Shown here piece by piece: positions 33,772 to 60,839 of a DNA stretch of 64,000 bases. The number at the start of each line of letters is the position of its first letter. Position 1 is the stretch's first letter. The stretch lies in NCBI GenBank assembly GCA_026003335.1, contig BPHB01000001.1, positions 320,591-384,590 on the forward strand. Reading direction: 5' to 3'. A program made the translations under genes and the position numbers. This stretch comes from Chitinophagales bacterium (lineage in GTDB: Bacteria; Bacteroidota; Bacteroidia; Chitinophagales; CAIOSU01). Under the pieces are notes generated by a model. It worked only from the letters and a program-made list of their open reading frames with translations. It did not search any database and had not been told where the DNA came from.

Positions 33772-35352
33772 ATGAACACTATACGAATAGGGCAACAACC
33801 ACTCTCTCTGGAAGAATTTCAGACTCTTCTTTACGAAAAAGCCCATGTAGAGATTGCGGCATCCCGCCTGGAAGAAATTGCCACGAATTATCATTTTCTT
33901 CAGGCCTTTTCCAAAAACAAAATTATTTACGGCATAAACACTGGTTTTGGGCCAATGGCACAGTATCAGGTATCCGAAGATGAACGCATTGAGTCACAGT
34001 ATAATCTTATCAGAAGTCATTGTGCAGGGTCAGGCCGACCGCTACCCTATCTCTTTTCCCGTGCTATGATGATAGACCGGCTCAACACCCTTACTCTTGC
34101 AAAATCTGGTGTACACCCGGATTTGGTGCTGTTACTTAAGGATCTCATCAACCATCAGGTCGCACCGGTACTATACGAGCATGGTGGCGTAGGTGCAAGC
34201 GGAGATCTGGTGCAACTGGCTCACCTGGGCCTGGCCCTTATCGGGGAGGGCATGGTGCATTATCGCGGTGAAGTAAAAAAAGCAGAAGAGGTGTTTCTTC
34301 AGCTGGGGCTGCAACCACTGAAGATACACATTCGCGAGGGGCTGGCTATTCTCAACGGCACTTCTGCCATGACCGGAGCTGCCGTTATCAATATTTTAGC
34401 TGCCGATAATTTACTCAGGTGGAGTATTTTTCTATCGGCTTTTCTGCAAGAAATATTTGAATCCTACAATGACCATTTTTCTTTGCCTCTCAATAAAGCA
34501 AAACTGCACAGGGGCCAGCAATATGTTGCCCAGGCAATGCATGCTCTCCTTTCATCCAGCCAGCGTGTGAAGCATCGTGCAGAAGACCATTATATTCCCA
34601 CAGGCAGTAACGGCAATGGCTATTTTCATCACAAAATTCAGGAATATTATTCTTTGCGATGTGTTCCCCAAATTCTGGGGCCGGTTTACGACACCATTGC
34701 ACACTGCCGCCAAGTTGTTACCAATGAAATCAATTCCGTAAGTGACAACCCTGTAATTGATCACCACAGCGGCCATGTGTATCATGGAGGCAATTTCCAC
34801 GGAGATTACGTTTCTCTGGAAATGGATAAGCTGAAAACAGTCATCATCAAGCTTTCCTTGCTTTCTGAAAGACAGCTCAACTATTTGCTGAATGACAAGC
34901 TGAACAACAAACTGCCTCCGTTTATTAACCCGGCCAAAGTAGGACTCAATTTCGGACTTCAGGGAGTGCAGTTTACTGCAACATCCACGGTCGCTGAAAA
35001 TCAATCTCTGGCTTCCCCGGTTTATGTGCACAGCATACCCTGCAACAATGACAATCAGGATGTGGTCAGCATGGGATTCAATGCAGCCATGATCTGTAAT
35101 AAAGTGATTGAAAACACTTATGAAGTGATGGCTATTGAACTACTGGCAGTTAAACACGCCATTGACTATTTAAAAATAGGCTCCACTATGGCGCATCCGC
35201 TTAAAGATATTTACCTGAAAATACAGGAACTCATCCCCTTTACCTCCACCGATATACCTCGCTATGAGCATATACAGAGCCTGAAAGACTATCTGAAATC
35301 TACGCAGCCTGCTGTCTATCAGCACCCATATACGTTTGTCGCCTCTTTATAA
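33772..35352 (+). CDS. aromatic amino acid ammonia-lyase (MIO enzyme), probable tyrosine ammonia-lyase of the flexirubin/aryl-polyene pathway
   Basis: MIO-forming triad in 'GGVGASGDLVQLAHL' plus 'YGINTGFGPMAQY' and 'NLIRSHCAGSG'. By recollection it is very similar along its length to the Flavobacterium johnsoniae TAL. First gene of the cluster. Confidence 0.8.
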   Translation: MNTIRIGQQPLSLEEFQTLLYEKAHVEIAASRLEEIATNYHFLQAFSKNKIIYGINTGFGPMAQYQVSEDERIESQYNLIRSHCAGSGRPLPYLFSRAMMIDRLNTLTLAKSGVHPDLVLLLKDLINHQVAPVLYEHGGVGASGDLVQLAHLGLALIGEGMVHYRGEVKKAEEVFLQLGLQPLKIHIREGLAILNGTSAMTGAAVINILAADNLLRWSIFLSAFLQEIFESYNDHFSLPLNKAKLHRGQQYVAQAMHALLSSSQRVKHRAEDHYIPTGSNGNGYFHHKIQEYYSLRCVPQILGPVYDTIAHCRQVVTNEINSVSDNPVIDHHSGHVYHGGNFHGDYVSLEMDKLKTVIIKLSLLSERQLNYLLNDKLNNKLPPFINPAKVGLNFGLQGVQFTATSTVAENQSLASPVYVHSIPCNNDNQDVVSMGFNAAMICNKVIENTYEVMAIELLAVKHAIDYLKIGSTMAHPLKDIYLKIQELIPFTSTDIPRYEHIQSLKDYLKSTQPAVYQHPYTFVASL

Positions 35353-35402
35353 AATATAGTGCTGTATAATAGTGAACTTATACACAACTCATTCGTAAGA
35401 AA

Positions 35403-36137
35403 ATGCCGTTAAAATATGCACTGGTAACAGGGGGCTCAAGAGGCATAGGCAAGGCTGTATGTTTACGACTTGCGCAAGATGGTTATGCTGTTCTGGTGAA
35501 CTACCGCAGTAACACAGAGGCCGCTGAAAACACCCTACGCGCTATTCAGCAAGCCGGAGGTACAGGAGAGTTGTTTCCCTTTGATGTAGCACATGCCGAT
35601 GAGGCAGGTAACGCTCTCAATCAATGGATAGAATCCAATCCCGACAAAAGCATTGAAGTGCTGGTGAACAATGCCGGCATCCGCAAAGACAATTTGCTGT
35701 TGATGATGTCCCCCTCCGAATGGAGACAGGTACTACAAACAAATCTGGACAGCTTTTATTACGTAACACGCCCTGTCTTGCAGAGCATGCTCTCCAGACG
35801 CTATGGGAGAATTATTAATATTGTATCCTTATCCGGCATTAAGGGTCTGGCAGGACAAACCAACTATTCGGCAGCCAAAGCAGGTGTGATAGGAGCCACC
35901 AAAGCCCTGGCTCAGGAAGTGGGCAGGCGCAACATCACAGTCAATGCCGTGGCTCCTGGCTTTATTAAAACCGATATGACCGCTGACCTGGATGAGAAAA
36001 CATTCAGAAATTTGATTCCTATGCAACGCTTCGGCAATCCTGAAGAGGTGGCTGAAGTGGTTGCTTTTCTGGCTTCACCGGGCGCCTCTTACATAACCGG
36101 TGAAGTCATTCATGTAAACGGAGGTCTTTATACATGA
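35403..36137 (+). CDS. 3-oxoacyl-ACP reductase (SDR, FabG-like KR)
   Basis: '[10 protein letters not shown]', 'NNAG', catalytic 'YSAAKAG'. Confidence 0.9.
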
Positions 36138-37357
36138 ACCGCGTTGTCATAACGGGACTGGGCATCTACTCATGCCTGGGCAAAAATCTGGAAGAAGTAA
36201 AACACTCTCTTTATCATGGCAAATCAGGCATAGCATTTTTACCCGAACGCAAAGCTTTTGGCTACCGATCTGCGCTGAGCGGAGTGGTAGAAAGGCCTCA
36301 ACTGAAAGGGTTACTTGACAGGAGGGCTCGGCTCATGCTGGCCGAGGAAGGGGAATATGCCTATATCGCTACGTTGGAAGCCCTTAAAAATGCCCGCCTG
36401 GAGGAAGGTTTTATGCATCAGCATGAAATAGGTATTATCTACGGCAATGATACTTCAGCTCTCGCTGTGATTGAAGCTGTGGATATTATGCGGGAGAAAA
36501 AAAGCACTGTACATGCCGGCTCTGGATCTGTATTCCAGACCCTCAACTCCACCGTAACCATGAACCTGGCTACCATCTTCAAACTTAAGGGCATCAACTT
36601 CACCCTCAGTGCAGCCTGCGCCAGCGGCTCGCATGCCATCGGCATGGCTTACCTGCTGATAAAACATGGCTATCAGAACTGCATCATCTGTGGTGGAGCT
36701 CAGGAAACCAACATTTACTCCATGGGCAACTTTGACGCTTTGGGAGCCTTCTCTATGAGAGAAGATAACCCCACGGCCGCCTCCCGCCCCTTTGATCGTG
36801 ACCGGGACGGACTCGTACCCAGTGGCGGGGCAGCCACCGTGATTCTGGAAAGTGAAAGCTTTGCCAGGAAACGGCGAGCCCCCATACTGGCCGAAGTGAT
36901 CGGATACGGATTTTCCTCCAACGGGAGCCACATCTCCAACCCCAGCGTGGAAGGACCGGTCAGGTCGCTACGCATGGCACTGCATGACGCCCGCATCAGA
37001 CCTGAAGATGTGGACTACATTAATGCACATGCCACCTCTACACCTCAGGGTGATGCCAGCGAAGCAAGGGCGCTGTATGAAGTATTCGGGGACAACATGT
37101 GCCCTGTGAGCTCTACCAAATCCATGACCGGCCATGAATGCTGGATGGCAGGCGCCAGTGAAATTGTGTATTCCATGTTAATGATGCATAACTCCTTTAT
37201 AGCGCCTAATATCAACTTTGAAAACCCGGATGAGGATTCCGCCAGACTGAACATTGCTGCCACTACCCTGGAGCGAAATATACATACTTTTCTATCCAAT
37301 TCTTTTGGGTTTGGAGGAACGAATTCCACCATTGTTGTTCGCGAATGGAATACGTAA
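36134..37357 (+). CDS. beta-ketoacyl-ACP synthase (KS, FabB/F-like)
   Basis: Cys-His-His triad: '[12 protein letters not shown]', '[11 protein letters not shown]', '[10 protein letters not shown]'. ATGA overlap with the KR gene. Confidence 0.9.
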
Positions 37358-37366
37358 ATTTGCCCC

Positions 37367-37624
37367 ATGAACAGAGAGGAAGTCGTTACTAAAATCAATG
37401 CGTTTCTGGCAGAAGAATTTGAAATTGCGCCCTCTGCTATTACTCCAGAAGCTTCGCTTAAAGAAACCCTGCAGCTTGACAGTCTGGATTATGTTGACCT
37501 TGTTGTAATCATTGAAAGCAACTTTGGCTTTAAGGTAAAACCGGAAGATTTCACAGGCATTATCACGTTCAATGATTTCTACAACTACATCATGAGTCGC
37601 ATCTCTCCAACCGTAAGCAACTAA
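37367..37624 (+). CDS. acyl carrier protein
   Basis: 85 aa with the phosphopantetheine site 'LQLDSLDYVDLV'. Confidence 0.85.
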   Translation: MNREEVVTKINAFLAEEFEIAPSAITPEASLKETLQLDSLDYVDLVVIIESNFGFKVKPEDFTGIITFNDFYNYIMSRISPTVSN

Positions 37625-38508
37625 TGTCAACCTGGGAAGGTAAGTCCAGAGGAAACAAACTGGGCTATGCCATCTTTGTGGCCATTCTTCGCCATTTGGG
37701 TGTGAAGCCCGCTTATTTATTGTTGCGTTTCATTGCGTTCTATTATTTTATCACCCTATATCAGTCGTCTGCCAATCTTTACTACCTCTACCGGCACAGG
37801 CTTAAGTTCAGCCGGGTGAAAGCCTTGCTGGGCATTTATAAAAATTATTACAGGCTGGGACAAAATATCATTGACAAGGTAGTGGTGATGTCCGGGCTGC
37901 CACATACGTTTACCTTTGATTTTGATGGGGAAGAACATCTTGCTGAAATGGTCAGAAGGGGCACGGGAGGTATTCTCATCAGCGGACATATAGGCAACTG
38001 GGAAATACCCGGTCACTTTTTAAATAAGTTCAATGTGCCTATCAATATCGTGATGTATGATGCAGAAAGGGAACAAATAAAAGAATATCTGGATGAAATT
38101 ACCGGAGGACGCACCGTAAAAGTTATAGCCATAAAAAATGATCTTTCCCATATTTTCCAGATCAGTCAGGCTCTCAATCAGGGAGAGCTCGTATGCATGC
38201 ATGCAGACCGTTTTATGCCGGGTAATCGTACCCTGCTGCTGGATTTTTTGGGCAAACCTGCTCCTTTCCCCTTGGGACCCTTCCTCATTGCTTCATCCCT
38301 CGGAGCTCCCGTGTCTTACGTCTTTGGCATTAAAGAAACTGACCGCCACTATCATCTCTTCGGCAGCCCGCTGAAATTTTTCCCCAAAACCAAAGATGAA
38401 GCCCAGCTCCGCTCCATCATGCAGGAATACGTGCAGGCGCTCGAACAAAAAGTAAAACAATATCCTTATCATTGGTTTAATTATCATAACTTCTGGGCCA
38501 ACCCCTAA
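37624..38508 (+). CDS. LpxL/HtrB-family lysophospholipid/lipid A-type acyltransferase
   Basis: N-terminal TM and the 'SGHIGNWE' (HX4E/D) motif. The start codon overlaps the ACP stop (TAATG). Confidence 0.75.
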   Translation: MSTWEGKSRGNKLGYAIFVAILRHLGVKPAYLLLRFIAFYYFITLYQSSANLYYLYRHRLKFSRVKALLGIYKNYYRLGQNIIDKVVVMSGLPHTFTFDFDGEEHLAEMVRRGTGGILISGHIGNWEIPGHFLNKFNVPINIVMYDAEREQIKEYLDEITGGRTVKVIAIKNDLSHIFQISQALNQGELVCMHADRFMPGNRTLLLDFLGKPAPFPLGPFLIASSLGAPVSYVFGIKETDRHYHLFGSPLKFFPKTKDEAQLRSIMQEYVQALEQKVKQYPYHWFNYHNFWANP

Positions 38509-38548
38509 ACCCTAACCATTTACCAACAGAAACAATTTTTTTTCTTTC

Positions 38549-40909
38549 ATGCCGCAGCTAAAAAAACGCCTGTTGTTTTTAGGACTTCCGGTAATAACCA
38601 TTCTTTTAATAGTCTATGTTTTCAAACTTACTTTCCTGAAAAGCACCCTGGACATTACCCGGGGCGTTGAGATGGATCGCTTGCCTGAAGGAACCCGACT
38701 GATGGTCATCGCACTTCAGAAACAGATTGCTGCCGAAGATCCCTTGCGGCTACCCTTCTTTCTCATGGACGATAAGCTCCGCATCCGGAAGCTACAGCAA
38801 AAAATAAGTTTTGGCACCAATGCCTCCCTGCATTTGCCAAGGGAAATAGCATACATCCATTTGTTCGCAGGAAATACCAATGACGCCATCCTGCAAATGG
38901 AAAAACTGGTTGCATCGTTTAATTTATCCCTGGATAGCTTGACCTCAAATAATGCAGAACCTCTCCGCTTTCTGGCACTGGCTCATCTGCGATTAGGTGA
39001 ACAACAAAACTGTATAGCCAATCACAACAGCCAATCCTGTATAGTTCCGTTTCATCGTGAAGCGGTGCACCAAAATAAAACCCACGCTGAGCAAGCGATG
39101 GCATTGCTCTACCGCCTGTGTGATGCCGACACCACTGACTACACCAGCCGATGGCTGTTGAATGTTGCTGCTATGGCTTTGGATCAATATCCGGATGCAC
39201 TGCCTTCAGATTTGCTGATTCCGCTGCATGATGATTACACAGATAGACCTGATCTGCCTTTTCAACCTTTTACCAACATTGCCGGCAACTTAGGATTAGA
39301 CTTCAACGGCCTTGCCGGTGGCGTTATCATAGACGACTTCAACAATGACGGCTTCCTTGACCTGATCACCTCTTCCTGCGGGCTTGATCATCCGCTTACC
39401 TATCACGAAAACAGCGGCAAGGGATATTTTTACGACAAATCTTCCCAACCCGGTCTTACAGGCCTAACTGGCGGGCTGAATCTGGTTCAGGCTGATTATG
39501 ATAATGACGGTCTGCTGGATTTTTTGGTCTTACGCGGAGCCTGGTTAGGTTCTTATCCAACCTACCCTAACTCTTTGATAAAAAACAGGGGCAGAGGAAT
39601 GTTTGAAGATGTTACTCACGCATCAGGGTTGCTCTCTTTTCATTCCTCGCAGGTTGCTTGCTGGGCAGACTTCAATCTTGACGGGCACCTGGACCTCTTT
39701 GTCGGCAATGAACAAACGGATTTCTCTGACAAAAATCCAGGTGGCAACATGATTGAACTTTTTCTCAACAACGGCAACGGAACCTTTACAAATGTGGCTG
39801 ACTCGGTGGGTTTGATTCTAAAGGCAATCATAAAAGGAGCTTCATGGATTGACTACAACAACGATGGCTTGCCTGACCTCATCATATCCGCATTAGGAAG
39901 TAAAAACAAACTCTTTAAAAATGTATGCGGCAATCCGGATCAGAAATGCCATTTTGAGGACGTATCCGAATCTGCCGGTATCCATGGCCCGATAATGAGT
40001 TTTCCTGTTATGGTATTTGACTTTAACAATGACGGATGGGACGACATTTTCATAGGAGACTTTGACATGGCTTTTGTTGCCGGATATGATAAAATGCCAT
40101 CCGGCTGGTCATCGGATGCCTCCGGACAATTTGCTCGTGAAATGCCGGGACTGGCGCCTGCTACGACCATGCCGGCTCTTTATCTTAATAATCAAGACAA
40201 TACGTTCACCAACATTGCCGGGGAGGCAGGGCTGCATAAAGTATGTTTCACCATGGGATGCAATTTTGGCGACCTTGACAATGATGGCTTCCTGGATATT
40301 TACCTGGGCACCGGCACTCCCAACTATGAGTCGGTGATGCCCAACCGCATGTTCCGCAATGCTGGGGGTGCACGCTTTGAAGAAGTTACCTTTTCCGGAA
40401 GATTCGGACATATTCAAAAAGGCCATGGAATAAGCTTTGCTGACCTGGATAATGATGGCGACCAGGATATTTATGCAGTCATGGGAGGAATTTTTGAAGG
40501 CGATCGTTTCCCGAATGTGTTGTTTGAAAATCCAGGTAATGCGCACGCATGGATTGCGCTAAAGCTCGTTGGCACGTCTTCCAACCGCAGCGCTATAGGT
40601 GCACGTATCACCGTGACGGCATTGTATGCTGACGGTAGCGAACGGCAGTTTCATCGCACCGTTTCATCCGGAGGCAGCTTCGGAGCCAATCCCCTGCTGG
40701 TGCATGTGGGGTTGGGTGACGCCACCCTGGTACGCTCTCTGGAGGTTCGCTGGCCTGCAAAAAAAGCCAACCCCCAGCATTTCACAAATCTGCCCGTTAA
40801 TCACTACATGGTAATAACCGAAAATGATTCGCTGCCGGCCTTTGAAAGCCTTTCCAGAATTGATTTTTCATCTGTAGATTTGAGCCCTGTGCATCCGCAC
40901 GTTCATTAA
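38549..40909 (+). CDS. CRTAC1-family protein: N-terminal TM anchor, TPR-like region, FG-GAP/VCBS repeats, C-terminal ASPIC/UnbV domain
   Basis: Seven Ca-binding-type repeats ('FNNDGFLDL', 'DYDNDGLLDF', 'DFNLDGHLDLF', 'DYNNDGLPDL', 'DFNNDGWDDIF', 'GDLDNDGFLDIY', 'ADLDNDGDQDIY') and 'NRSAIGARITV...GGSFGANPLLVHVGLG...LEVRWP'. Confidence 0.8.
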   Translation: MPQLKKRLLFLGLPVITILLIVYVFKLTFLKSTLDITRGVEMDRLPEGTRLMVIALQKQIAAEDPLRLPFFLMDDKLRIRKLQQKISFGTNASLHLPREIAYIHLFAGNTNDAILQMEKLVASFNLSLDSLTSNNAEPLRFLALAHLRLGEQQNCIANHNSQSCIVPFHREAVHQNKTHAEQAMALLYRLCDADTTDYTSRWLLNVAAMALDQYPDALPSDLLIPLHDDYTDRPDLPFQPFTNIAGNLGLDFNGLAGGVIIDDFNNDGFLDLITSSCGLDHPLTYHENSGKGYFYDKSSQPGLTGLTGGLNLVQADYDNDGLLDFLVLRGAWLGSYPTYPNSLIKNRGRGMFEDVTHASGLLSFHSSQVACWADFNLDGHLDLFVGNEQTDFSDKNPGGNMIELFLNNGNGTFTNVADSVGLILKAIIKGASWIDYNNDGLPDLIISALGSKNKLFKNVCGNPDQKCHFEDVSESAGIHGPIMSFPVMVFDFNNDGWDDIFIGDFDMAFVAGYDKMPSGWSSDASGQFAREMPGLAPATTMPALYLNNQDNTFTNIAGEAGLHKVCFTMGCNFGDLDNDGFLDIYLGTGTPNYESVMPNRMFRNAGGARFEEVTFSGRFGHIQKGHGISFADLDNDGDQDIYAVMGGIFEGDRFPNVLFENPGNAHAWIALKLVGTSSNRSAIGARITVTALYADGSERQFHRTVSSGGSFGANPLLVHVGLGDATLVRSLEVRWPAKKANPQHFTNLPVNHYMVITENDSLPAFESLSRIDFSSVDLSPVHPHVH

Positions 40910-40929
40910 TATCCTTCAATGCAAACCAG

Positions 40930-41376
40930 ATGCTCGTGCACGATAAGCAAAAAGTGTTAGCGCTGATACCCCAAAAACCTCCCTTTGTAATGGTAGATGC
41001 CCTCCGCGCTGCTTCAGACCAGGAAGCGGAAACGGTTTTTTTTATTGATCCCAGGAATATCCTCTGCGAGCAAAATCTTTTTTCTGAAGCCGGGTTGATA
41101 GAAAATATCGCCCAAAGCGCTGCTCTGCACATGGGCTATCTGTGCCAGCAGAAAAACATTCCGCCTCCGAAAGGATTCATCGGGGATGTAAAAGATCTGA
41201 AAATTTATGCTCTGCCAACAGCCGGCTCGCATATTTCCACACGTATCTATGTGGAAGACCTGATTTTCGGAGTAACTCTCCTGCTAGGGGAAATATTTCA
41301 GAACGGGAAACAACTAGCCTCCTGTCGTATGAAAGTGTTTACCCTCAATGACAACAACACTCCGGCCGGTATATGA
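40930..41376 (+). CDS. hotdog-fold 3-hydroxyacyl-ACP dehydratase-like protein (APE-cluster DH)
   Basis: 148 aa with 'LIPQKPPFVMVDAL' and 'GLIENIAQSAAL', typical of FabZ-like APE dehydratases. Confidence 0.7.
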   Translation: MLVHDKQKVLALIPQKPPFVMVDALRAASDQEAETVFFIDPRNILCEQNLFSEAGLIENIAQSAALHMGYLCQQKNIPPPKGFIGDVKDLKIYALPTAGSHISTRIYVEDLIFGVTLLLGEIFQNGKQLASCRMKVFTLNDNNTPAGI

Positions 41377-42662
41377 ACAAGCTCACAGCCTTTTTTAAGA
41401 CTCTCGGGCCGGGAGTATTATTTGCCAGCACAGCTATTGGCGTTTCACATCTGGTGCAATCTACCCGCGCAGGGGCAGACTATGGCTTTGCCCTCCTATG
41501 GGCAGTTATTCTGGCCAATGTGTTCAAATTTCCGTTTTTTGAATATGGCTCTCGCTATGCCAATGCTACTGGCACCAGCATCATTGAGGGTTACAAAAAA
41601 ATAGGTCGATGGATGCTGGCTCTGTATTTTCTGATTACGGTGTGTTCTATGTTTTTTGTAACGGCTGCGGTGGGTGCAGTAACAGCCGGTTTTCTTGACA
41701 ATCTTTTCGGTATCTCGGCTGCCTTTCCGGGCAAGCCGCTGCTTGCAACCACCCTGTTATTTATAGTCTGTCTCGGTATTTTGGCTATCGGTCGCTTTGC
41801 AGCGCTGGATCTGCTGATTAAGCTTATCGGCACTGCCCTGCTGATCTCTACCCTGGCTGCCTTTATCATTACCCTTATCCGGGGACCTGTTCCTCATGCA
41901 CCCGGCTTCACACCTCCTCCCCTTTGGGATGAAAAAAGTATTCTATTCATCATCGCGCTTATGGGATGGATGCCCACAGCCGTTGATTTGTCCTCATGGA
42001 ACAGCCTGTGGACTCTGGAACGTATTAAACAATCCGGCTACAAACCCACGCTGCGCGAAACCCTTGTGGAATTCAACCTGGGCTATTGGATTTCCGCTGC
42101 CCTCTCTATTTGCTTCGTAACTCTTGGGGCATACATTCTTTACGGCACAGGACAAAAGATGCCGGATAATAGCGCCCTCTTTGCCAACGAGGTGGTTGAG
42201 CTCTACACTGCCACCATGGGCTCATGGAGCTATTTCATCATCGCCACTTCTGCCTTTTCCATCATGTTTAGTACCAGCATTGGTGTTTTTGACGGTTATG
42301 CCCGTGCTCTTGAACGCACCTCTGAGCTTCTGTTTTTCAGTGAAGAAAAAGCTACCCTGATGCTGAAAGACAGAAAGGTGTATTTGTTTTCCCTGTTCAG
42401 CCTTGCTATTGGCGCTTACCTGATAATTTCGGTGTTCAGCAACAAGATGAAAGCCTTGGTTGACCTGGCTACCAGCATATCCTTTCTGATTGCCCCGGTT
42501 ATTGCCGTAGTAAATTTCCGGTTAGTGAAGAAGCACCTGCAGCCGGAATGTGCACCCGGTTGGGCACTGCAGATTCTGAGCTATGCCGGCATTGCCTTTC
42601 TTACCGGCTTCAGTATACTTTACCTCATAGCACGGTTTATTCCGGAATGGCTTCCGTTTTAA
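41373..42662 (+). CDS. NRAMP-family divalent metal cation transporter
   Basis: 429 aa, about 11 TM helices, N-terminal 'LGPGVLFASTAIGVSHLVQSTRAGADYGF'. ATGA overlap with the upstream DH. Confidence 0.7.
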   Translation: MNKLTAFFKTLGPGVLFASTAIGVSHLVQSTRAGADYGFALLWAVILANVFKFPFFEYGSRYANATGTSIIEGYKKIGRWMLALYFLITVCSMFFVTAAVGAVTAGFLDNLFGISAAFPGKPLLATTLLFIVCLGILAIGRFAALDLLIKLIGTALLISTLAAFIITLIRGPVPHAPGFTPPPLWDEKSILFIIALMGWMPTAVDLSSWNSLWTLERIKQSGYKPTLRETLVEFNLGYWISAALSICFVTLGAYILYGTGQKMPDNSALFANEVVELYTATMGSWSYFIIATSAFSIMFSTSIGVFDGYARALERTSELLFFSEEKATLMLKDRKVYLFSLFSLAIGAYLIISVFSNKMKALVDLATSISFLIAPVIAVVNFRLVKKHLQPECAPGWALQILSYAGIAFLTGFSILYLIARFIPEWLPF

Positions 42663-42812
42663 CTCCTGTTGCCACCCATATATACAACACCTTCCTACCC
42701 CTTACATAAGCCGGCCATACGTATAACCACCTCCCGACAAACGACAAATAACTATGTGTTTTTAGAATTTAGCCGTGACTATTCAGGATATTTGCAGCGC
42801 AATTCAAAACTT

Positions 42813-45635: not shown

Positions 45636-45646
45636 CCTTGTGCTGT

Positions 45647-51266: not shown

Positions 51267-52446
51267 CTACAAGGAAACATTCCGGCAACATCGTTGCTGT
51301 GTGCTAATTCCAACTTACAACAATGCCTCTACTTTGGAAAAAGTGCTGCTTTCGGTCTTGGAATATTGCGATGATGTAATCGTGGTCAATGATGGCTCAA
51401 CCGACCGGACAGCCGAAATCCTTGCCGGCATCAGTGGCATTCAGGTGATTTCCTACCCAAAAAACAGAGGTAAAGGGTATGCATTGCGTAAAGGTTTTGT
51501 GTACGCTTCGCAAAAGGGCTACCGTCATGCCATAACCATGGATTCAGACGGACAACACGCTGCATCTGATTTACCTCTTTTTCTGAACAAACTGGAGACC
51601 TCTTCGGCAGAAATGATAATCGGTGCCCGCAATATGACGATAACGGCAAATGTGCCCGGAAAAAGCAGTTTCGGTCACCGCTTTTCCAATTTTTGGTTCA
51701 AGGTAGAAACCGGTATTGATGCCCCGGACACGCAATCGGGGGTACCGGTTGTATCCGCTTTATGCAATGAAAAATATGCGCTTCTTCTCCGTAAGGTATG
51801 AGTTTGAGATAGAGGTATTGGTGCGCCTGGCATGGAGAGGAGTACATTTTGATTTTGTACCTATTACTGTCTATTATCCACCCAAAGAACAACGCATTAC
51901 CCATTTCCGCCCCTTTGCGGATTTTGCGCGCATCAGCCTGCTGAATACTGTGTTGGTGCTGATAGCCTTTTTGTACATTCGCCCGCGTAATCTTTACCGA
52001 AGCCTAACGGAAAAAAAAACTTTCGTTCATTCCTCAGGCTGCTCTTTTTTGACAAAAACGAAACTATTCTCAGCAAGGCATTATCGGTGGGGCTTGGCGT
52101 ATTTGTAGGGATAGCTCCGATATGGGGGTTTCAGATTCTTACGGGATTGTTTCTCGCTTTTATATTCAGGCTCAACCGCGCGATCGTTCTGATCAGCTGT
52201 AATATCAGCCTGCCACCATTCATTCCCATTATCATTTATCTGAGCTATGTTTTTGGAGCCGTATGGATGGGCGACCACGCCTTGCCGGTAACTTTCAGCT
52301 TTGATATTTCACTTGAAACCATAAAATTGAGCCTGAAGCAATATGTGGTAGGGGCATTGATGCTGGCAACTGTTGCCGGCATGGCATCCACACTGATCAG
52401 CTACGCAGTTTTGTTTCTGTGGTCAAAAAAGCAATTAGTCGAATAA
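51250..52446 (+). pseudogene. family 2 glycosyltransferase fused to DUF2062, interrupted by two homopolymer frameshifts
   Basis: The GT2 motifs 'VLIPTYNNA', 'VNDGSTDRT' and 'MDSDGQH' end at 'DTQSG', then the frame breaks at G5 (51738-51742). Removing one G gives 'DTQSGYRLYPL...'. A second break occurs at A9 (52011-52019); adding one A gives '...LTEKKNFRSFLRLLFFDKNETILSKALSVGLGVFVGIAPIWGFQ' (DUF2062). Confidence 0.65.
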
Positions 52447-52456
52447 GAGAAATCGT

Positions 52457-55400: not shown

Positions 55401-56317
55401 AGGGGGCTTTTTATTTGTCTGAAAAACTAAATCTGGATATCCAGCCTTTCTTGCTGCATGGTACCGGTGACCGTATGAAAAAAGGCGACTTTCTGCTCAC
55501 CGGTGGACCCATGACTATGAAATTTCTCCCGCGCATTTCACCCCGGGATTTGTCTTATGGAACTTCTTACAGCGAACGTGCCAAAAACATCAATCGCTAT
55601 TTCAGGCAGGAATATGACAAATTGAAAGCTGAAATTGAAAGCCCTCAATATTACAGTTCTCTGCTCATAAGTAATTACCTCTATAAAGGGCCGGTGGTAG
55701 AGTGGTATATACGGGTGAAAATAAAATTGGAAAATTATTATCATCCCTATCATGCACATCTGCCGCGTAATGCCAGCATCGTGGATTTAGGCTGCGGATA
55801 TGGTTATACAGATTACCTGCTTTACTTTGCATCCAATGACCGTAAAATTATCGCGGTGGACTATGATAGGGAGAAAATTACTGTGGCCAGTCACTGTTTT
55901 TCAGCCAATCCGCATGTACGATTTTATTGTGATGATATTCGCAGTTTCCCCCTTCCCCGAGCAGACGCGTTTATACTCAATGACGTATTACATTATCTCA
56001 AACCTGACGAGCAGGAACATCTGATTCTCAAATGCATGCGTCATTTGAATGAAAACGGCAAAATATTTATCAAAGATGCCGATGCAGGCAACAGACAGCG
56101 CCATCTGGTCACACGGCTGACGGAAATCATCTCTACAGGTTCAGGCTTTAACCGTAAAAGCAAGAGTCTATACTTCGTGCCCCTGCAAAAATTTCAAGAC
56201 ATCGCAGAAAATATGGGCTACTCTATTCAGATAATCAGTGAGTCGCCCTATACATCCAATAAAATCATGATAGTCAGCAAATCAACGGCCTCAATCACAA
56301 CCGGTCATGCAATATGA
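52457..56317 (+). CDS. triple-domain protein: MMPL/RND-like exporter + PlsC-type acyltransferase + class I SAM methyltransferase
   Basis: 1286 aa. Two ~6-TM bundles separated by soluble loops span aa 1 to ~800. Next come 'FICNHQSFLDILV' (HX4D, nt ~55151) and 'FPEGTRS' (nt ~55342). The methyltransferase follows with 'VDLGCGYGY' (nt ~55781), 'AVDYD' and 'DAFILNDVLHYL'. Confidence 0.8.
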   Translation: MIAGLYRFFSQHRWLLAVMITVLTGVLLFLAAQIKIEEDITRLFPDDPKVEKLNKVFNNWRFSERITLIVSEKDTSHPAQPDSLIAFADTLYSRLNKELSEYVTDVQYRMDEQLMSKMHALIQSHLPIYLEDEDYRKIDSLLAPSQLKSTLQNQLKILMTPAGATLRKMLMTDPLGITYLPLKRFRESQQNRQFKIISDCIFSKDERNLLLFIYPSTRANETRRNSELISRLNNLISDMQSETYSVEYFGTPAIAVANARQIKRDIYFTLGITLLVLIVFIGFFFRSKLAPLIMLLPVLFGVVFSLAMVVLIQGTISGIAIGAGAVVLGIAVNYSLHIFTHYRQTPQMEAVIAEVAHPMLLGMFTTAGAFFFLQVLESQILQDFGLFAGFALTGALFFSLVVLPHCIPGSSAKQNTTNASGHTLLDKLSTLRPEYNYALIGAILLITGVLAFFATRVSFDGDMTKLNFMDKKLKEAEARLNRLMGSEEKKIAFVSTGATLNKALQNSKKLQDSLDSMKQQHIIKNYSSVSGIIPSWELQQERIRKWENFWRVEKIQQTQAALTEAASALKFREGAFNDFLALLDRKFEPITPDSLLTLPEIFGDYVIRMPGFSAIISTADITPGQRENLFNRILQTNDNFILDKQLVTAKFIEIIRDDFNLILGFTSLFVLFMLYAAHARIELALITFIPMTLSWIWILGLMGLTHLNFNIVNIILCTFIFGLGDDFSIFITDGLIQEYKAGKKSLSSIKVSNYLAAITVILSLGALLFAGHPALKSIAFTAIIGLFCVLFISQTLIPFFFRILITNRTAKGLRPLTASGIFISAFAFTYFVIGSFLLTLLGLVTLYLLPLKKEKCKYLFHVLLCKFVWSLVYLMVHVKKKYIGLEHTDFSKPAIFICNHQSFLDILVTVMTHPKLILLVNDWVYHSPVFGKVVKMADYYWIGQGAENSLEHIRERVKNGYSVVIFPEGTRSPDGVIRRFHKGAFYLSEKLNLDIQPFLLHGTGDRMKKGDFLLTGGPMTMKFLPRISPRDLSYGTSYSERAKNINRYFRQEYDKLKAEIESPQYYSSLLISNYLYKGPVVEWYIRVKIKLENYYHPYHAHLPRNASIVDLGCGYGYTDYLLYFASNDRKIIAVDYDREKITVASHCFSANPHVRFYCDDIRSFPLPRADAFILNDVLHYLKPDEQEHLILKCMRHLNENGKIFIKDADAGNRQRHLVTRLTEIISTGSGFNRKSKSLYFVPLQKFQDIAENMGYSIQIISESPYTSNKIMIVSKSTASITTGHAI

Positions 56318-57812
56318 TGTAATGATTGCAGGTGGCGGCTTAGGCGGATTGGTATGTGCCGGCATACTGGCACAGGAAGGCATGAGTGTGTGTGTGGTTG
56401 AAAAAAATAATCAACTGGGCGGAGCCCTCCAGAGCTTCAGAAGAGATCGCTGCACCTTTGATACCAGCGTGCACTACATTGGTGGTCTTGGGGAGGGTCA
56501 GACCCTCAACCGTTTGTTCCGCTATTTAAATATTCTGCCTGACCTCCGTTTGCGTAAGTATGATGATGATGGTTTTGACCACATTTTGTTCAAAGGAGAT
56601 CCGGTTGAATACAGACTTGCCCAGGGTTATACTAATTTCATTAAAAAACTCACAGAATATTTCCCTCGTGAAAAGGCAGCAATACAAAAGTATTGTGATG
56701 ACATACGCTACATTTGCCGTCAGTTTCCCATGTATAATCTGAATGCAGCCGATGGCTATGGGGACACGGCTGCCATGCATATAAACACGCGCGATTATCT
56801 TTCCTCCCTGACACAAAACAAAAAATTACAAAACGTACTTGCCGGCAATATACTGCTTTATGCAGGCAAGCCTGAAAGCACGCCACTGCACGTGCATGCC
56901 CTGGTAATAAACAGCTATATCGAAAGCAGTTGGAAATGCATTGACGGGAGCGACCATATTATCAAATTGCTCATCCGAAATATAAAGCGTGCCGGAGGCC
57001 ATATTATAAAAGGCAATGCCGTAGTCGGCCTCGTTGCTTCAGGAAACAATTTAACACACGCTATACTGGAAAACGGAGAGCACATTCATGCACGAAATTT
57101 TATCTCCGGCATGCATCCTTTGCAAATGCTGCAAATGGTAGACAGTCCGCTCATTAGACCCGCTTTCCGCAAACGACTTGCTTCGCTGGAAAACACCCCC
57201 TCGGCTTTTCTGGTGTATGTGGCCATGAAAAAAAATACATTCCCTTACCGAAACTACAACCTGTACGTCTACAATACCTCTGACGTATGGCAGACAATGC
57301 GTTATCGCCCGGAAGAGTGGCCTGCAAGCTATGCTATTTTCTATAACGGCATTCCGGAGAATGAAACCTACACAGATGGTCTGGCTTTAATGACTTATAT
57401 GCATTATGACGAAGTAAAATACTGGGAGAATACCGTGCATACCACTCGCATTCCCCAAAGCCGTGGTTCAGAATATGAAAATTTTAAAAACCAGCGGGCT
57501 GAAAAACTGATTGAAGATGCAGCCACCGTCTTACCCGAACTGCGCCACTGTATAAGTGCATACCACACCGCCTCTCCCCTGTCATTTCGTGACTATACAG
57601 GATCTCCACAGGGTAGCATGTACGGCTTTCTGAAAGATTGCACAGATCCAATGAAAACCCTTATTCCGGTTAGAACCAAAATTCCCAACCTTCTTCTAAC
57701 CGGGCAAAATCTAAATTTGCATGGAGTGCTGGGAGTTGCAATCAGTGCCGTGGTGACTTGTGCTGAACTGATTGGGAAGGAATATCTGCTGAACAAGATT
57801 AAAAATGCTTAA
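56307..57812 (+). CDS. phytoene-desaturase-family NAD(P)/FAD-dependent oxidoreductase
   Basis: 'YDVMIAGGGLGGLVCAGILAQEG' dinucleotide-binding motif; 501 aa amine-oxidase fold. Confidence 0.8.
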   Translation: MQYDVMIAGGGLGGLVCAGILAQEGMSVCVVEKNNQLGGALQSFRRDRCTFDTSVHYIGGLGEGQTLNRLFRYLNILPDLRLRKYDDDGFDHILFKGDPVEYRLAQGYTNFIKKLTEYFPREKAAIQKYCDDIRYICRQFPMYNLNAADGYGDTAAMHINTRDYLSSLTQNKKLQNVLAGNILLYAGKPESTPLHVHALVINSYIESSWKCIDGSDHIIKLLIRNIKRAGGHIIKGNAVVGLVASGNNLTHAILENGEHIHARNFISGMHPLQMLQMVDSPLIRPAFRKRLASLENTPSAFLVYVAMKKNTFPYRNYNLYVYNTSDVWQTMRYRPEEWPASYAIFYNGIPENETYTDGLALMTYMHYDEVKYWENTVHTTRIPQSRGSEYENFKNQRAEKLIEDAATVLPELRHCISAYHTASPLSFRDYTGSPQGSMYGFLKDCTDPMKTLIPVRTKIPNLLLTGQNLNLHGVLGVAISAVVTCAELIGKEYLLNKIKNA

Positions 57813-59496
57813 AAAAATAATCAGGTGGTTGGTTATACTGCTTCTTACCCTGCTGATCGGGACGGGAGGGCTTATAGCCTATATTGAACTGGCACTGCAT
57901 CCTCAACCACCTCACCCGGCAGATGTTTCTGCGTTAGACCTGAACCGGCAACAGATAGGCACCGACTTTTACAGAATAGGCAATAACTGGCTGAAAAAAA
58001 GCGACACCGGACTGTGGGAAATGTATCTGGAAGGCGGAGCTTTTGAGCGAGGTGTGATTGCCGGCAAACTATGCAAAGAGCTGCAGCTCAATCAGGAACA
58101 AAGCTTTGTTGAGCAAATCCGGAAAATGATACCTTCCGAAATGTATCTGAAATTTTTACGCTATTTCATTCTTTTTTTTAACCGCAATCTAGACAAGCAT
58201 ATTCCAGAAGAATACAAACTGGAGATTTATGGATTTTCTCTTTCAGCTCCCGCGGAATTTAATTTTATCGGAAACGGCTATGAACGGCTGCTGAACTATC
58301 ATGCCGCTCATGACATCGGGCACGCCCTACAAAACCTGATGCTGGTGGGATGCTCTTCTTTTTCGGTATGGGATAGCCGGTCTGCTGATTCGTCCCTTAT
58401 GATAGGGCGCAACTTTGACTTCTATGCCGGAGATCGCTTTGCCGAAAACAAAATCGTACTCTTCTGCAATCCTGACAGCGGTTATAAATTTTTCAGTGTG
58501 ACGTGGAGCGGATTTTCCGGGGTGGCATCCGGCATGAATGCAGCAGGCCTTACTGTAACCATCAATGCAGCCCGATCTGAAATACCAACGGCCTCGGCTA
58601 CTCCCATCTCCATTCTGGCACGGGAAATTTTACAATATGCCAGCACCATTGATGAGGCCTATGCTATTGCCGGCAAAAGAAAAACTTTTGTCGCAGAATC
58701 TATTCTTATCGGTTCAGCCCGTGACCGGAAAGCAGCTATTATTGAAAAATCACCAGGCCGCATGGCGCTATTTACTTCGGATACTGACTTTATACTCTGC
58801 ACCAACCACTATCAAAGCGCACTCTTCTCAGACGACCCTGATAACGTAAAAAACAAGGAGGAAAGCACTTCTGTGTATCGCTACAAGCGCCTGCTGGAAT
58901 GGATGGACAGTGTTCCCCGTTTCACACCCCAGGTGATTGCCAGCGTTTTGCGTGATAGAAAGGGGTTGGGCAACCGCAACATAGGCATGGGTAATGAAAA
59001 AGCCCTCAATCAGCTGATAGCACACCACTCCGTAATTTTTAAACCGACCCAAAAAATAGCCTGGGTGTCAGCCCCTCCCTATCAACTCGGCACCTACGTA
59101 GCCTACGACCTGGGGAAACTATGGGACATGCTTCCGGGCCGAACCAGCCATGCAGAGATTTACACGCCTGCATTGAATCTGCCAGCGGATACCTTCCTTT
59201 ACTCTGAAGAATACCGGAATTATGAACGCTACCGTCAACAGAAAACAAGGATACAACGAGCATCTCCGGGATCTCTTCCGGATTCAGCGCTTATGGCTTT
59301 CCCGACATTGAACCCGGAATGTTATCTCACTTATATGACGCTGGGTGATTACTACAAAAGAACAGGCGATTGCCTGAAGGCACAAGAAAATTACCAAACC
59401 GCCCTCTCCAAGGAGGTGGCAACCATTCCGGAGCGGTTGTACCTGGAAAAAGCCTTGCACACATGCCAGAACAATAAAGCAAAAATTAAAAATTAA
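57805..59496 (+). CDS. peptidase C45 / acyl-CoA:6-APA acyltransferase-family protein with C-terminal TPR-like tail
   Basis: N-terminal TM, candidate autoprocessing nucleophile in 'LMLVGCSSFSVW', and 'GRNFDF'. Confidence 0.7.
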   Translation: MLKKIIRWLVILLLTLLIGTGGLIAYIELALHPQPPHPADVSALDLNRQQIGTDFYRIGNNWLKKSDTGLWEMYLEGGAFERGVIAGKLCKELQLNQEQSFVEQIRKMIPSEMYLKFLRYFILFFNRNLDKHIPEEYKLEIYGFSLSAPAEFNFIGNGYERLLNYHAAHDIGHALQNLMLVGCSSFSVWDSRSADSSLMIGRNFDFYAGDRFAENKIVLFCNPDSGYKFFSVTWSGFSGVASGMNAAGLTVTINAARSEIPTASATPISILAREILQYASTIDEAYAIAGKRKTFVAESILIGSARDRKAAIIEKSPGRMALFTSDTDFILCTNHYQSALFSDDPDNVKNKEESTSVYRYKRLLEWMDSVPRFTPQVIASVLRDRKGLGNRNIGMGNEKALNQLIAHHSVIFKPTQKIAWVSAPPYQLGTYVAYDLGKLWDMLPGRTSHAEIYTPALNLPADTFLYSEEYRNYERYRQQKTRIQRASPGSLPDSALMAFPTLNPECYLTYMTLGDYYKRTGDCLKAQENYQTALSKEVATIPERLYLEKALHTCQNNKAKIKN

Positions 59497-59513
59497 ACAA
59501 GCCGAGCCCGAGT

Positions 59514-60839
59514 ATGTTTATCCCTCCCATTGAGCTGTGCCCATTGGATGAAATTGCCCGTTATCAGAGTGAACGCCTTTCGGAAACACTGCAATACCTC
59601 TCAGCATGTTCTCCGTTTTATCAAAAATTTTTCAAAGTGCATCGCATCAAACCAGAGGCTATAAAGACCGTTGCCGACCTGCGCCTGATTCCACCCGTTA
59701 CGAAAGATGATTTTGCAGCTTATAACGACACTTTCAGATGTGTGCCATTAAAAAAAATTATTGACCTAACAATCACCTCCGGAACCACCGGACAACCGGT
59801 CACCGTGGGGCTCACCGAAGCCGACCTTCAACGCCTGGCTTATAATGAGTATATCTCCTTTTGCTGTGCCTCAGCTTCAGAAGACGATATTTTTCAGCTC
59901 ATGGTTACTCTGGATCGCCAGTTCATGGCCGGTATGGCCTATCACCTGGGCGTTCGGAAGCTGGGGGCAACCATGATACGCACGGGACCTGGACTACCCT
60001 GGATGCAACTGGAAACCATCCAACGACTCAAGCCCACCGTGCTGATTGCCGTGCCCTCATTTCTGCTCAAACTGATAGAATTTGCACGCAGCAATGGCTT
60101 TGACCTCAGCAACACCAGCGTAAAAAAAGTGATTTGTATCGGGGAAAATATCCGCCAGCCTGATTTTTCGCTTAATCATCTGGCATCCCGGATCACAGAG
60201 CATTGGAATATTCAGCTGTTCTCAACCTATGCCTCCACAGAAATGCAAACCGCCTTCAGCGAATGTGAGGCAGGCAAGGGCGGTCACCATCACCCGGAAT
60301 TGATTATTGTGGAACTGTTGGATGATCAGGATAACCCGGTTAAACCCGGAGAGGTCGGAGAAGTCACCATCACCACCCTGGGTATTGAAGCTACACCCTT
60401 GCTGCGCTATAAAACCGGTGACATCACTGTCTATTATGATGAGCCCTGCTCCTGCGGCCGCCACACCCTGCGGCTCGGACCCATTATCGGCAGAAAAAAT
60501 CACATGCTCAAATACAAAGGCACCACCCTTTATCCGGCTGCCATCATGGATCTGCTCAATGGCATGCCTGAAATATCAGATTATGCCATTGAAGCCTATA
60601 CCAGTGAAACAGGTACAGATGAGATTACGCTCCATCTGCATGCAACAACGGAAAATCCCCAGCTTATCAATCGCATCAGCAACATAATGCAATCCAAGCT
60701 GCGGGTGTTGCCTGAAATACATTTTGTTGCACAAGACCAACTGCTTGCCCTCATGAAACCGGAGCAGAACCGCAAGATTCAGCGGTTTATTGATAACAGA
60801 AAAAAAGTCGTCCAAACAACCGAAAGGATAAATTCTTAA
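59514..60839 (+). CDS. phenylacetate-CoA ligase-like (PaaK/F390 synthetase family) adenylate-forming enzyme
   Basis: 'TSGTTGQPV' AMP-binding motif and 'YKTGD'; 441 aa. Confidence 0.8.
   Translation: MFIPPIELCPLDEIARYQSERLSETLQYLSACSPFYQKFFKVHRIKPEAIKTVADLRLIPPVTKDDFAAYNDTFRCVPLKKIIDLTITSGTTGQPVTVGLTEADLQRLAYNEYISFCCASASEDDIFQLMVTLDRQFMAGMAYHLGVRKLGATMIRTGPGLPWMQLETIQRLKPTVLIAVPSFLLKLIEFARSNGFDLSNTSVKKVICIGENIRQPDFSLNHLASRITEHWNIQLFSTYASTEMQTAFSECEAGKGGHHHPELIIVELLDDQDNPVKPGEVGEVTITTLGIEATPLLRYKTGDITVYYDEPCSCGRHTLRLGPIIGRKNHMLKYKGTTLYPAAIMDLLNGMPEISDYAIEAYTSETGTDEITLHLHATTENPQLINRISNIMQSKLRVLPEIHFVAQDQLLALMKPEQNRKIQRFIDNRKKVVQTTERINS

Follow-up and report, generated by a model that had tools for sequence, protein, structure and literature searches.

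The window analyzed here, a 64,000-nucleotide stretch of contig BPHB01000001.1 from a Chitinophagales bacterium, contained an unbroken run of plus-strand open reading frames (ORFs) at 33772-60839, as indicated by an ORF map and a junction analysis. Base composition was even throughout the run, and its 26 ORFs corresponded to 24 genes because one gene, flxT, was split over three frames. We assigned the run as a flexirubin (flx) biosynthetic gene cluster, with a probability of about 90%. An earlier note on this DNA had placed it in the flexirubin/aryl-polyene class; the class call was correct, and five NCBIfam equivalogs and the gene order allowed us to sharpen it to flexirubin.

Specifically, FlxA, FlxB, LolA2, LolB2, and FlxY scored above the NCBIfam flexirubin equivalog cut-offs (Table 1). 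The dedicated LolA2/LolB2 pair and the MMPL-acyltransferase-methyltransferase protein FlxU were both found. In addition, the window order A B C D E F H I K L M N O P Q R S T U V W Y was the order given in Table S4 for the Chitinophaga pinensis cluster. For a broader comparison, 80 loci were obtained from a FlxN scan of species-representative genomes and re-searched with all of the window proteins. The gene blocks E-F-H, F-H-I-K, H-I-K-L-M-N-O, M-N-O-P-Q, and O-P-Q-R-S were each present in 38 to 43 of these 80 Bacteroidota loci (38 to 45 when every sub-block was counted). Among the loci that shared the block order were members of Chitinophagaceae, Chryseolinea-type Cytophagales, and other groups. 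Protein identities to the loci reached only about 60 to 75% at best, indicating that the organism had no close sequenced relative among the species representatives.

Gene content was assigned via Pfam and NCBIfam scans, and E-values were as low as 1e-230, so the gene content was not the product of chance. As shown in Table 1, the type II fatty acid synthase/polyketide synthase-like set was complete; it consisted of active ketosynthases (KSs), KS-like partners, acyl carrier proteins (ACPs), a short-chain dehydrogenase/reductase (SDR) ketoreductase, hotdog dehydratases, and a thioesterase.

Table 1. Genes of the flexirubin cluster and nucleotide runs in flxT, in window positions; sites in other loci carry the locus designation.
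Feature	Position	Strand	Evidence or remark
flxA, tyrosine ammonia-lyase (4-methylideneimidazole-5-one enzyme)	33772-35352	+	NCBIfam FlxA_rubin_TAL 765.9 bits, cut-off 700
flxB, SDR ketoreductase	35403-36137	+	NCBIfam FlxB_rubin_SDR 398 bits, cut-off 340
flxC, FabB/FabF-type KS, Cys-His-His	36134-37357	+	Pfam ketoacyl-synt N and C domains; AACASG, NAHATST, TGHECW
flxD, ACP	37367-37624	+	Pfam PP-binding; DSL at residue 38
flxE, LpxL-type (lipid A biosynthesis family) acyltransferase	37624-38508	+	Pfam Lip_A_acyltrans 9e-20
CRTAC1-family FG-GAP/ASPIC protein, N-terminal hydrophobic segment	38549-40909	+	Pfam FG-GAP_3, UnbV_ASPIC; homologue names
flxF, hotdog-fold dehydratase (ApeP/FabZ-like)	40930-41376	+	Profile of 26 homologues
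Nramp-family permease	41373-42662	+	Pfam Nramp 32.8 bits; NCBIfam Nramp_1 55.8 bits
flxH, 4HBT/YbgC-type thioesterase	42669-43238	+	Pfam 4HBT_2 2.9e-20
flxI, KS, Cys-His-His	43238-44386	+	Pfam KS domains; NACISG, AHGTGT, GHTLGAAG
flxK, flavin-dependent halogenase homologue	44379-45635	+	Pfam Trp_halogenase 1.5e-26
flxL, truncated KS-like protein without active-site Cys	45647-46297	+	Weak KS N-terminal domain match; alignment
flxM, second ACP (DSI)	46248-46502	+	Pfam PP-binding; NCBIfam PRK09184 77.9 bits, cut-off 70
flxN, KS, Cys-His-His	46568-47785	+	Pfam KS domains; TACSSS, LHGTGT, GHTLGASG
flxO, KS-like chain-length-factor-type partner, no Cys, no His-His	47769-48824	+	Pfam Ketoacyl-synt_2; alignment
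flxP, NodB-type polysaccharide deacetylase	48818-49594	+	Pfam Polysacc_deac_1 5e-32
flxQ, LolA2 periplasmic carrier	49587-50216	+	NCBIfam LolA2_flexi 204.9 bits, cut-off 125
flxR, LolB2 (DUF3261-like)	50179-50814	+	NCBIfam LolB2_flexi 88.9 bits, cut-off 60
flxS, hotdog dehydratase (FabZ/ApeI-like)	50880-51266	+	Pfam FabA 27 bits, cut-off 23
flxT, GT2-DUF2062 glycosyltransferase, three frames	51250-52446	+	Pfam GT2 and DUF2062 on separate ORFs
G5 run, first flxT frameshift	51738-51742	+	G4 would restore ...DTQSG-YRLYP...
A9 run (G AAA AAA AAA C), GT2/DUF2062 junction	52011-52019	+	A10 would give ...TEKK-NFRSF...
flxU, MMPL/RND exporter, PlsC acyltransferase, and S-adenosylmethionine (SAM) methyltransferase fusion, 1286 amino acids	52457-56317	+	Pfam
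flxV, CrtI/amine-oxidase-type flavin adenine dinucleotide oxidoreductase	56307-57812	+	Pfam Amino_oxidase, NAD_binding_8; weak NCBIfam CrtD/CrtI-family matches
flxW, C45/AAT N-terminal nucleophile hydrolase-type acyltransferase	57805-59496	+	NCBIfam C45_proenzyme 220.9 bits, cut-off 85; Pfam AAT
flxY, 4-coumarate-coenzyme A (CoA) ligase (PaaK/F390-synthetase type)	59514-60839	+	NCBIfam FlxY_rubin 623.8 bits, cut-off 520
Sites homologous to the A9 run	L044:15544-15553, L068:12475-12484, L070:15384-15393, L078:15355-15364, L060:15421-15431		
Further homologous sites	L166:3406-3415, L167:3781-3790, L168:1258-1268		

The scans agreed well with the functions listed in the earlier note. The ammonia-lyase (Pfam Lyase_aromatic, 3.6e-154) carried the ASG triad at residues 142 to 144 and was accompanied by the PaaK-like ligase. 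Alignments recovered three KSs with Cys-His-His triads (FlxC, FlxI, and FlxN) and two KS-like proteins that lacked the cysteine (FlxO and FlxL, the latter a 216-amino acid homologue of the C. pinensis "condensing enzyme" FlxL). Pfam and NCBIfam matches bore out the two ACPs (DSL and DSI), the single ketoreductase, the 4HBT thioesterase, the phytoene-desaturase-like oxidoreductase, the LolA-like and DUF3261-like proteins, the MMPL exporter, the GT2-DUF2062 protein, the acyltransferases of the LpxL, PlsC, and C45/AAT types, and the NodB deacetylase. The flavin halogenase family and the SAM methyltransferase domain were likewise in agreement with motifs and Pfam: FlxK contained GAGPSG (GxGxxG) and WIWIIP (WxWxIP), its best NCBIfam match being CmlS at 172 bits, well under the CmlS cut-off, and FlxU contained MMPL, Acyltransferase (residues 883-998), and Methyltransf_25 (residues 1108-1201) domains. 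For flxH, translation may instead begin at the ATG at 42813, as judged from the domain onset at residue 57 to 62.

Both of the hotdog dehydratases that had been claimed were borne out, and one of them, the 148-amino acid FlxF, was detectable at the profile level only. Single-sequence searches of Pfam and the PDB with FlxF returned no match. A profile of 26 homologues matched FabZ structures (8ayd, 1.4e-6; 6qsr_B, 0.005) and also tied the family to the ApeI/P structure, which argued that FlxF is a genuine second hotdog dehydratase, as far as profile similarity can indicate. When the 26 homologues were scanned individually against Pfam, one had an ApeP-like match; the orthologue in locus L081 carried PF22817 (ApeP-like). 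The flxS copy in a second assembly, L165, carried an ApeI-like tag.

The closest parallel among known systems was the flxA-flxY cluster of C. pinensis (Cpin_1853-1877; Schoner et al. 2014, PMC3992019), for which the conversion to 4-coumarate by FlxA and to 4-coumaroyl-CoA by FlxY was demonstrated and the pigment structure was solved (PMC3992019). In both clusters, flxA was first and flxY was last, and 22 shared genes were in the same order. Both also had the FlxU fusion architecture, the C45 protein FlxW, and the truncated KS-like FlxL. The earlier note had spoken of several non-canonical features without naming them; the 1286-amino acid FlxU fusion, the C45 FlxW, and the truncated FlxL may look unusual at first but are all canonical for flx clusters. 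The cluster of Chitinophaga skermanii (L072) showed protein identities of 28 to 75% to the window. Unlike the C. pinensis cluster, the window lacked flxG (a secreted protein of about 215 amino acids), flxJ (a methyltransferase), and flxX (a holo-ACP synthase/phosphopantetheinyl transferase), its flxE and flxF were separated by a CRTAC1/FG-GAP gene and its flxF and flxH by an Nramp-family permease gene, and its flxT was frameshifted. In most of the other loci, too, flxI was directly followed by flxK.

Two further systems were compared with the window. One was the flexirubin cluster of Flavobacterium johnsoniae (Fjoh_1073-1110; McBride et al. 2009, as cited in PMC3992019), a comparison that ran through C. 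pinensis; the proteins of these two species were reported to be 29 to 67% identical (PMC3992019). According to the table in PMC3992019, the F. johnsoniae cluster had a homologous set of tyrosine ammonia-lyase, ligase, KS, ACP, ketoreductase, dehydratase, thioesterase, and halogenase genes, together with genes for LolA-like, GT2, exporter, reductase, and C45 proteins. In contrast to the window, the same source placed darA and darB within the 37-kb F. johnsoniae cluster and gave a different gene order.

The other system was the aryl-polyene (ape) clusters of Escherichia coli CFT073 and Xenorhabdus doucetiae (PMC8253772; bioRxiv 10.1101/2020.12.19.423268). The ape clusters and the window shared a type II KS/chain-length factor pair, two ACPs, a ketoreductase, an ApeI/ApeP-type dehydratase pair, a thioesterase, a methyltransferase, LPLAT-type and glycosyl/acyl-transferases, an RND/MMPL exporter, and LolA-like/LolB-like proteins, and the FlxF and FlxS families were related to ApeP and ApeI, respectively. 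However, the ape starter is 4-hydroxybenzoate activated by ApeH, with no ammonia-lyase listed, whereas FlxA and FlxY give the window a route from tyrosine; ape clusters yield an N-acetylgalactosamine (GalNAc)-phosphoglycerol lipid rather than a dialkylresorcinol ester; and in the window, a single protein combines the exporter with the acyltransferase and the methyltransferase. The gene content thus pointed to a cluster that works like the ape system and belongs to the flexirubin branch.

Flexirubin clusters have already been characterized, NCBI has curated models for them, and they occur widely in Bacteroidota; the cluster in the window is one more member. Entries 100% identical to the FG-GAP and Nramp-family proteins came from a Chitinophagales bacterium, KatS3mg031 (locus tag KatS3mg031_0288), and these entries and a T9SS-tailed neighbor gene put the window in Bacteroidota. 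The KatS3mg prefix matched a study of Katase hot spring sediment (52 °C, pH 7.2, PacBio HiFi reads, metaFlye assembly; PMC9671151). This sediment may have been the habitat of the host; the link is by name prefix only, and mg031 is absent from the text of the study. Seen as a cluster, it adds little; if the link holds, it brings flexirubin clusters to an uncultured Chitinophagales living in a hot spring at 52 °C.

The part of the gene order that set the window apart was 38549-42662, where two genes that were not mentioned in the earlier note, neither of them of a biosynthetic type, were located. The first encoded the 786-amino acid CRTAC1-family FG-GAP/ASPIC protein between flxE and flxF, which were adjacent in other loci with gaps of 0 to 199 nucleotides. 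The second encoded the 429-amino acid Nramp-family permease, and it took the position of flxG; in other loci, the flxF-flxH gap of about 700 nucleotides held the gene for FlxG, a secreted protein of about 215 amino acids with an LGIDFS motif. Canonical Nramp transporters are defined by the metal-binding motifs DPGN and MPH. A motif check indicated that the permease had neither. The idea that the Nramp-like protein was a long form of FlxG was rejected, as there was no similarity between the two.

Neither the FG-GAP gene nor the Nramp gene was found in any of the 80 other flx loci, and their more distant homologues were located in unrelated neighborhoods. A relative, L081 (GCA_964408105.1), had the same B-C-D-E-FGGAP-F-Nramp order, with identities of 62% and 82%; its plus-strand cluster ended after the Nramp gene. 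Because this second genome had the same arrangement, the arrangement was inherited and was not an assembly artefact. The proposal that the two genes are habitually linked to flx genes was rejected, since the linkage was confined to the lineage of the window. The inserted genes could have an accessory function or could be neutral hitch-hikers; in either case, an otherwise rigid flx operon tolerated an insertion (the CRTAC1-type gene) and a replacement (Nramp for flxG).

Two side observations concerned homologues of these genes. In the Cyclobacteriaceae locus L078, two tandem FlxG-like genes (503 and 213 amino acids; L078:4167-6316) were located between flxF and flxH, a position with a single gene elsewhere. 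On L082, an unrelated metagenome contig with an Nramp homologue, four tandem genes for 111-amino acid single-stranded DNA-binding proteins were located beside HNH-like, Gp49, and helix-turn-helix genes (L082:4171-5714).

Several points weighed against the assignment of the run as a working flexirubin cluster. The source was known only as a metagenome-assembled genome (MAG). Neither darA nor darB was present within the 64 kb of the window or the 10 kb that follow it (from -33 to +10 kb relative to the cluster), and no FlxG homologue was found anywhere in the window, though one was present in nearly all of the other loci. The GT2 domain of FlxT was cut by the frameshift at the G5 run at residue 164 of about 255. 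The chlorinated product that had been predicted earlier was a weak prediction, as a halogenase homologue is no proof of chlorination; C. pinensis also has FlxK, and its characterized flexirubin is C43H54O4, which contains no chlorine (PMC3992019). Finally, a sigma-70 promoter scan of 33000-64000 gave counts close to the shuffle expectation, leaving the single operon a matter of inference, but the promoter model does not fit Bacteroidota, and the scan was uninformative on operon boundaries either way.

Tight packing was the indication that the genes of the run might be expressed together. The largest intergenic gap in the run was 65 nucleotides. Overlapping start/stop junctions were located at 36134 (-4, ATGA), 37624 (-1), 41373 (-4), 43238 (-1, from the ATG), 44379 (-8), 47769 (-17), 48818 (-7), 49587 (-8), 51250 (-17, GTG), 56307 (-11), and 57805 (-8). 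These were all of the 11 overlaps listed in the earlier note, which had counted about 25 plus-strand genes where we counted 24, all co-directional. Two more overlaps, at 46248 and 50179, brought the total to 13. The tight packing and the 13 overlaps suggested co-transcription and translational coupling. Thus, for the claim of a single translationally coupled operon, the packing and the overlaps stood, and the one-operon status was a reading of the gene packing only.

The competing idea was that the run consists of several co-directional transcription units, with internal promoters, for example, ahead of the inserted genes or of flxN or flxS. Gaps of 40 to 65 nucleotides occurred only before 35403, 38549, 46568, and 50880, with 65 nucleotides before flxN and flxS, and other genomes split or rearrange the cluster at similar points, an example being the Y-A-B-F-I-L-N-O type in Mucilaginibacter. 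The end of the L081 cluster after the Nramp gene fits this pattern as well. On the other hand, 13 junctions overlapped and every gap was at most 65 nucleotides. An intrinsic-terminator scan of 33000-64000 gave counts at or near the shuffle expectation with no excess; the scanning does not model Bacteroidota promoters and gave no support for either view. An Rfam scan of the whole window detected no riboswitch or leader upstream of flxA. We considered several transcription units unlikely and co-transcription of the flexirubin genes the better description of the packing.

The predicted pathway would begin with the deamination of tyrosine to 4-coumarate by FlxA and the formation of 4-coumaroyl-CoA by FlxY, based on equivalog-level similarity. 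The tyrosine-derived 4-coumaroyl-type starter proposed in the earlier note was consistent with the scores of FlxA and FlxY above their equivalog cut-offs, and a tyrosine-derived aryl-polyene core was a well supported prediction from the gene content. The starter would then be extended with malonyl units into an aryl-polyene by FlxC/I/N, FlxO/L, FlxD/M, FlxB, and FlxF/S, as the family set suggests. The methyltransferase domain of FlxU may add a ring methyl group, and FlxK would possibly add chlorine. The predicted methylation goes back to this domain of FlxU; a separate FlxJ of the C. pinensis type was absent. Methylation via the FlxU domain was therefore plausible as a prediction. FlxH would free the acid, and FlxW, FlxE, and the PlsC domain of FlxU would carry out acyl transfer. 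FlxT, FlxP, the MMPL part of FlxU, LolA2, and LolB2 would participate in joining the chromophore to its lipid partner and carrying it to the outer membrane.

The nature of the lipid partner was the point at which flexirubin and aryl-polyene lipids had to be weighed. C. pinensis makes a dialkylresorcinol ester, and its darA and darB genes are unlinked to and far from the flx cluster (PMC3992019); FlxW has been proposed to join the polyene to the dialkylresorcinol (Schoner et al., PMC3992019). No dar genes were linked to the flx cluster in either organism. Because darA and darB were missing from the vicinity of the window cluster, the ester partner was unproven, though the genes are unlinked in C. 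pinensis too. In E. coli and Xenorhabdus, a GalNAc-phosphoglycerol aryl-polyene lipid is assembled and exported with the help of ApeD, ApeJ, ApeM, ApeL, and ApeN (PMC8253772; bioRxiv 10.1101/2020.12.19.423268). This set has parallels in the window, namely the genes for the GT2 protein, the deacetylase, the acyltransferases, the exporter, and the Lol-like proteins.

These facts left room for a product that is an APE-type aryl-polyene lipid, with a sugar/phospholipid anchor attached via the GT2 protein, the deacetylase, and the acyltransferases, and not a true flexirubin. The lack of darA and darB over the 33 kb before and the 10 kb after the cluster agrees with this model, and the cluster has kept the GT2 protein, the NodB deacetylase, the LpxL- and PlsC-type acyltransferases, the MMPL exporter, and the LolA/LolB-like proteins, whose counterparts make and export the APE lipid in Xenorhabdus and E. 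coli. However, FlxA and FlxY are flexirubin equivalogs, C. pinensis yields a dialkylresorcinol ester with the same gene set and unlinked dar genes, and the GT2 protein required for such an anchor is frameshifted in the window. For these reasons, we regarded an APE lipid as an improbable product of the cluster and a flexirubin as the likely one.

The break in flxT, which was not described in the earlier note, involved two frameshifts in the GT2-DUF2062 gene. The gene was divided into ORFs at 51250-51801, 51716-52108, and 52087-52446, with 1-nucleotide shifts at the G5 and A9 runs. Removal of one G and addition of one A yielded a 398-amino acid FlxT that was collinear with intact homologues and 52 to 54% identical to them over about 390 amino acids. 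In the case of the G5 run, the shift was found in this organism only and in no other flxT homologue. The L165 assembly, an independent one made from run DRR290133, was 99.93% identical to the window over 19,021 bp (14 mismatches, no gaps) and had the same G5 and A9 runs, which indicated that the metaFlye consensus step was not to blame. Because the G5 shift truncates the catalytic domain, flxT is probably inactive, a pseudogene in this organism, unless the G5 run is a platform error. The cluster may consequently be functionally impaired at the lipid-anchoring step.

The least probable of the alternatives was that the cluster as a whole is in decay and gives no finished product in this lineage: the GT2 domain is truncated in two assemblies that differ by 14 single-nucleotide changes and no indels over 19 kb, flxG has been lost, two unrelated genes have been inserted, and the related L081 cluster stops after its Nramp gene, but the remaining 23 genes, including the 1286-amino acid ORF, are intact with catalytic residues in place, the E-FGGAP-F-Nramp arrangement has been kept in a second genome, where the proteins are 62 to 82% identical, and does not stem from recent damage, and both assemblies may share reads, so that a platform error at G5 is possible. 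In addition, E. coli apeJ deletion mutants keep partial pigmentation (PMC8253772; bioRxiv 10.1101/2020.12.19.423268).

The second frameshift of flxT, at the poly-A junction between the GT2 and DUF2062 domains, had a different distribution. The A9 tract in the window was one A short of an in-frame fusion and contained the slippery heptamer A_AAA_AAA. At the same junction, flxT was out of frame in 5 of the 11 genes from genome loci; they came from Chryseosolibacter histidini and another Chryseosolibacter, from Chryseolinea lacunae, and from two MAGs, one of them a Cyclobacteriaceae. Metagenomes contributed three additional shifted genes, taken from the nearest GT2 homologues, for a total of nine including the window (Table 1). 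All nine shifted genes had 11 nucleotides where 12 would be in frame, had DUF2062 in the -1 frame, and had a tract of 9 to 11 A with A_AAA_AAA. A TAA codon in the -1 frame was located directly ahead of the tract in seven of the nine, with none there in L168 and the window.

The sequences downstream of the tract suggested that the DUF2062 frame is used. In eight genes, the distance from the tract to the first ATG in the -1 frame was exactly 28 codons, with no stop and no indel, and in seven of these eight, there was no ATG, GTG, or TTG within the 28 codons. Synonymous changes were abundant in this interval (for example, 14 synonymous and 7 non-synonymous between L166 and L167). Over the whole DUF2062 domain, the ratio of non-synonymous to synonymous substitution rates was 0.13 to 0.22 where it could be computed, in line with purifying selection; synonymous sites were saturated for most pairs. 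In the window, 82 codons of the DUF2062 frame passed without an ATG. Constraint in the -1 frame together with the lack of a start codon of its own argued that DUF2062 is translated in these genomes and would be reachable only from the GT2 frame or after the tract gains an A.

In-frame versions of the junction were also common. Close relatives with the tract in frame were found (L074, L076, and L054), and in-frame tracts of 9 to 12 A were present in 26 of 80 metagenome loci, a sample that was ranked by full-length score, is biased toward in-frame genes, and is not a measure of the frequency of shifted genes. The shift was found in only 3 of the 120 nearest GT2 homologues. Lysine codons at the junction were AAA in 90% of cases versus 68% elsewhere in the gene (binomial p of 2e-7, not corrected for relatedness). 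Approximately 12 of the 150 best DUF2062 cluster representatives were short ORFs that started at or beside the conserved Met, which is how shifted genes come out of gene callers. Downstream of the tract, no stimulatory RNA structure was detected in eight shifted genes, with z-scores of -0.3 to +1.0.

Together, the tract data suggested one of three mechanisms: transcriptional slippage, -1 ribosomal frameshifting without a stimulator, or phase variation at the DNA level; random sequencing error or recent pseudogenization fit them poorly. Tentatively, and with the odds somewhat against it, we propose that the flxT poly-A junction is a conserved recoding switch that is one A short in at least nine divergent Bacteroidota lineages. 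Under this model, full-length GT2-DUF2062 would require either an extra A in the transcript, put in by RNA polymerase, or a -1 slip of the ribosome on A_AAA_AAA. A short GT2-only protein would be made otherwise, and the isoform ratio of the lipid-anchoring glycosyltransferase would thereby be set. The nearest alternative, a DNA-level phase-variation switch at the tract, would explain the data equally well.

Recoding on runs of A has precedents elsewhere: the A_AAA_AAG sequence of dnaX is reportedly a site of -1 frameshifting, and transcriptional slippage in bacteria reportedly occurs on runs of at least nine A. The flxT junction resembled such sites in that the tract has 9 to 11 A with A_AAA_AAA in the zero frame, the downstream domain is in the -1 frame and lacks its own start, and both a short and a long product would be expected. 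It differed in that no stimulatory RNA structure follows the tract, many homologues are in frame, and the junction is known from DNA sequence alone. We found no literature on DUF2062 frameshifts, on frameshifts in flexirubin glycosyltransferases, or on transcriptional slippage in Bacteroidetes glycosyltransferases. If the shift is programmed, the junction would be an unreported recoding or phase-variation site in the lipid-anchoring and export genes, which are the least understood part of aryl-polyene and flexirubin biology; a phase-variation switch at the tract, if true, would likewise be new for the pathway.

Other features of the window were located on either side of the cluster. An aromatic amino acid operon occupied 25104-29857 on the minus strand, some 4 kb ahead of the flx cluster, which draws on tyrosine; the operon had genes for a 3-deoxy-D-arabino-heptulosonate 7-phosphate synthase/chorismate mutase fusion, prephenate dehydrogenase, an aminotransferase, and 5-enolpyruvylshikimate-3-phosphate synthase. 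A polyhydroxybutyrate-depolymerase-type esterase gene at 60866-62347 began 26 nucleotides after flxY on the same strand, and its product had a PKD domain and a type IX secretion system (T9SS) sorting tail. This gene may be co-transcribed with flxY; its membership in the cluster was rejected, as a homologue was located near flx genes in 1 of the 80 loci (L042). Farther upstream, two adjacent genes at 9265-16953 and 17067-22742 encoded immunoglobulin-like/PKD-repeat proteins of 2562 and 1891 amino acids with C-terminal T9SS sorting domains. A tRNA gene on the minus strand at 31713-31785 was the only Rfam match in the window.

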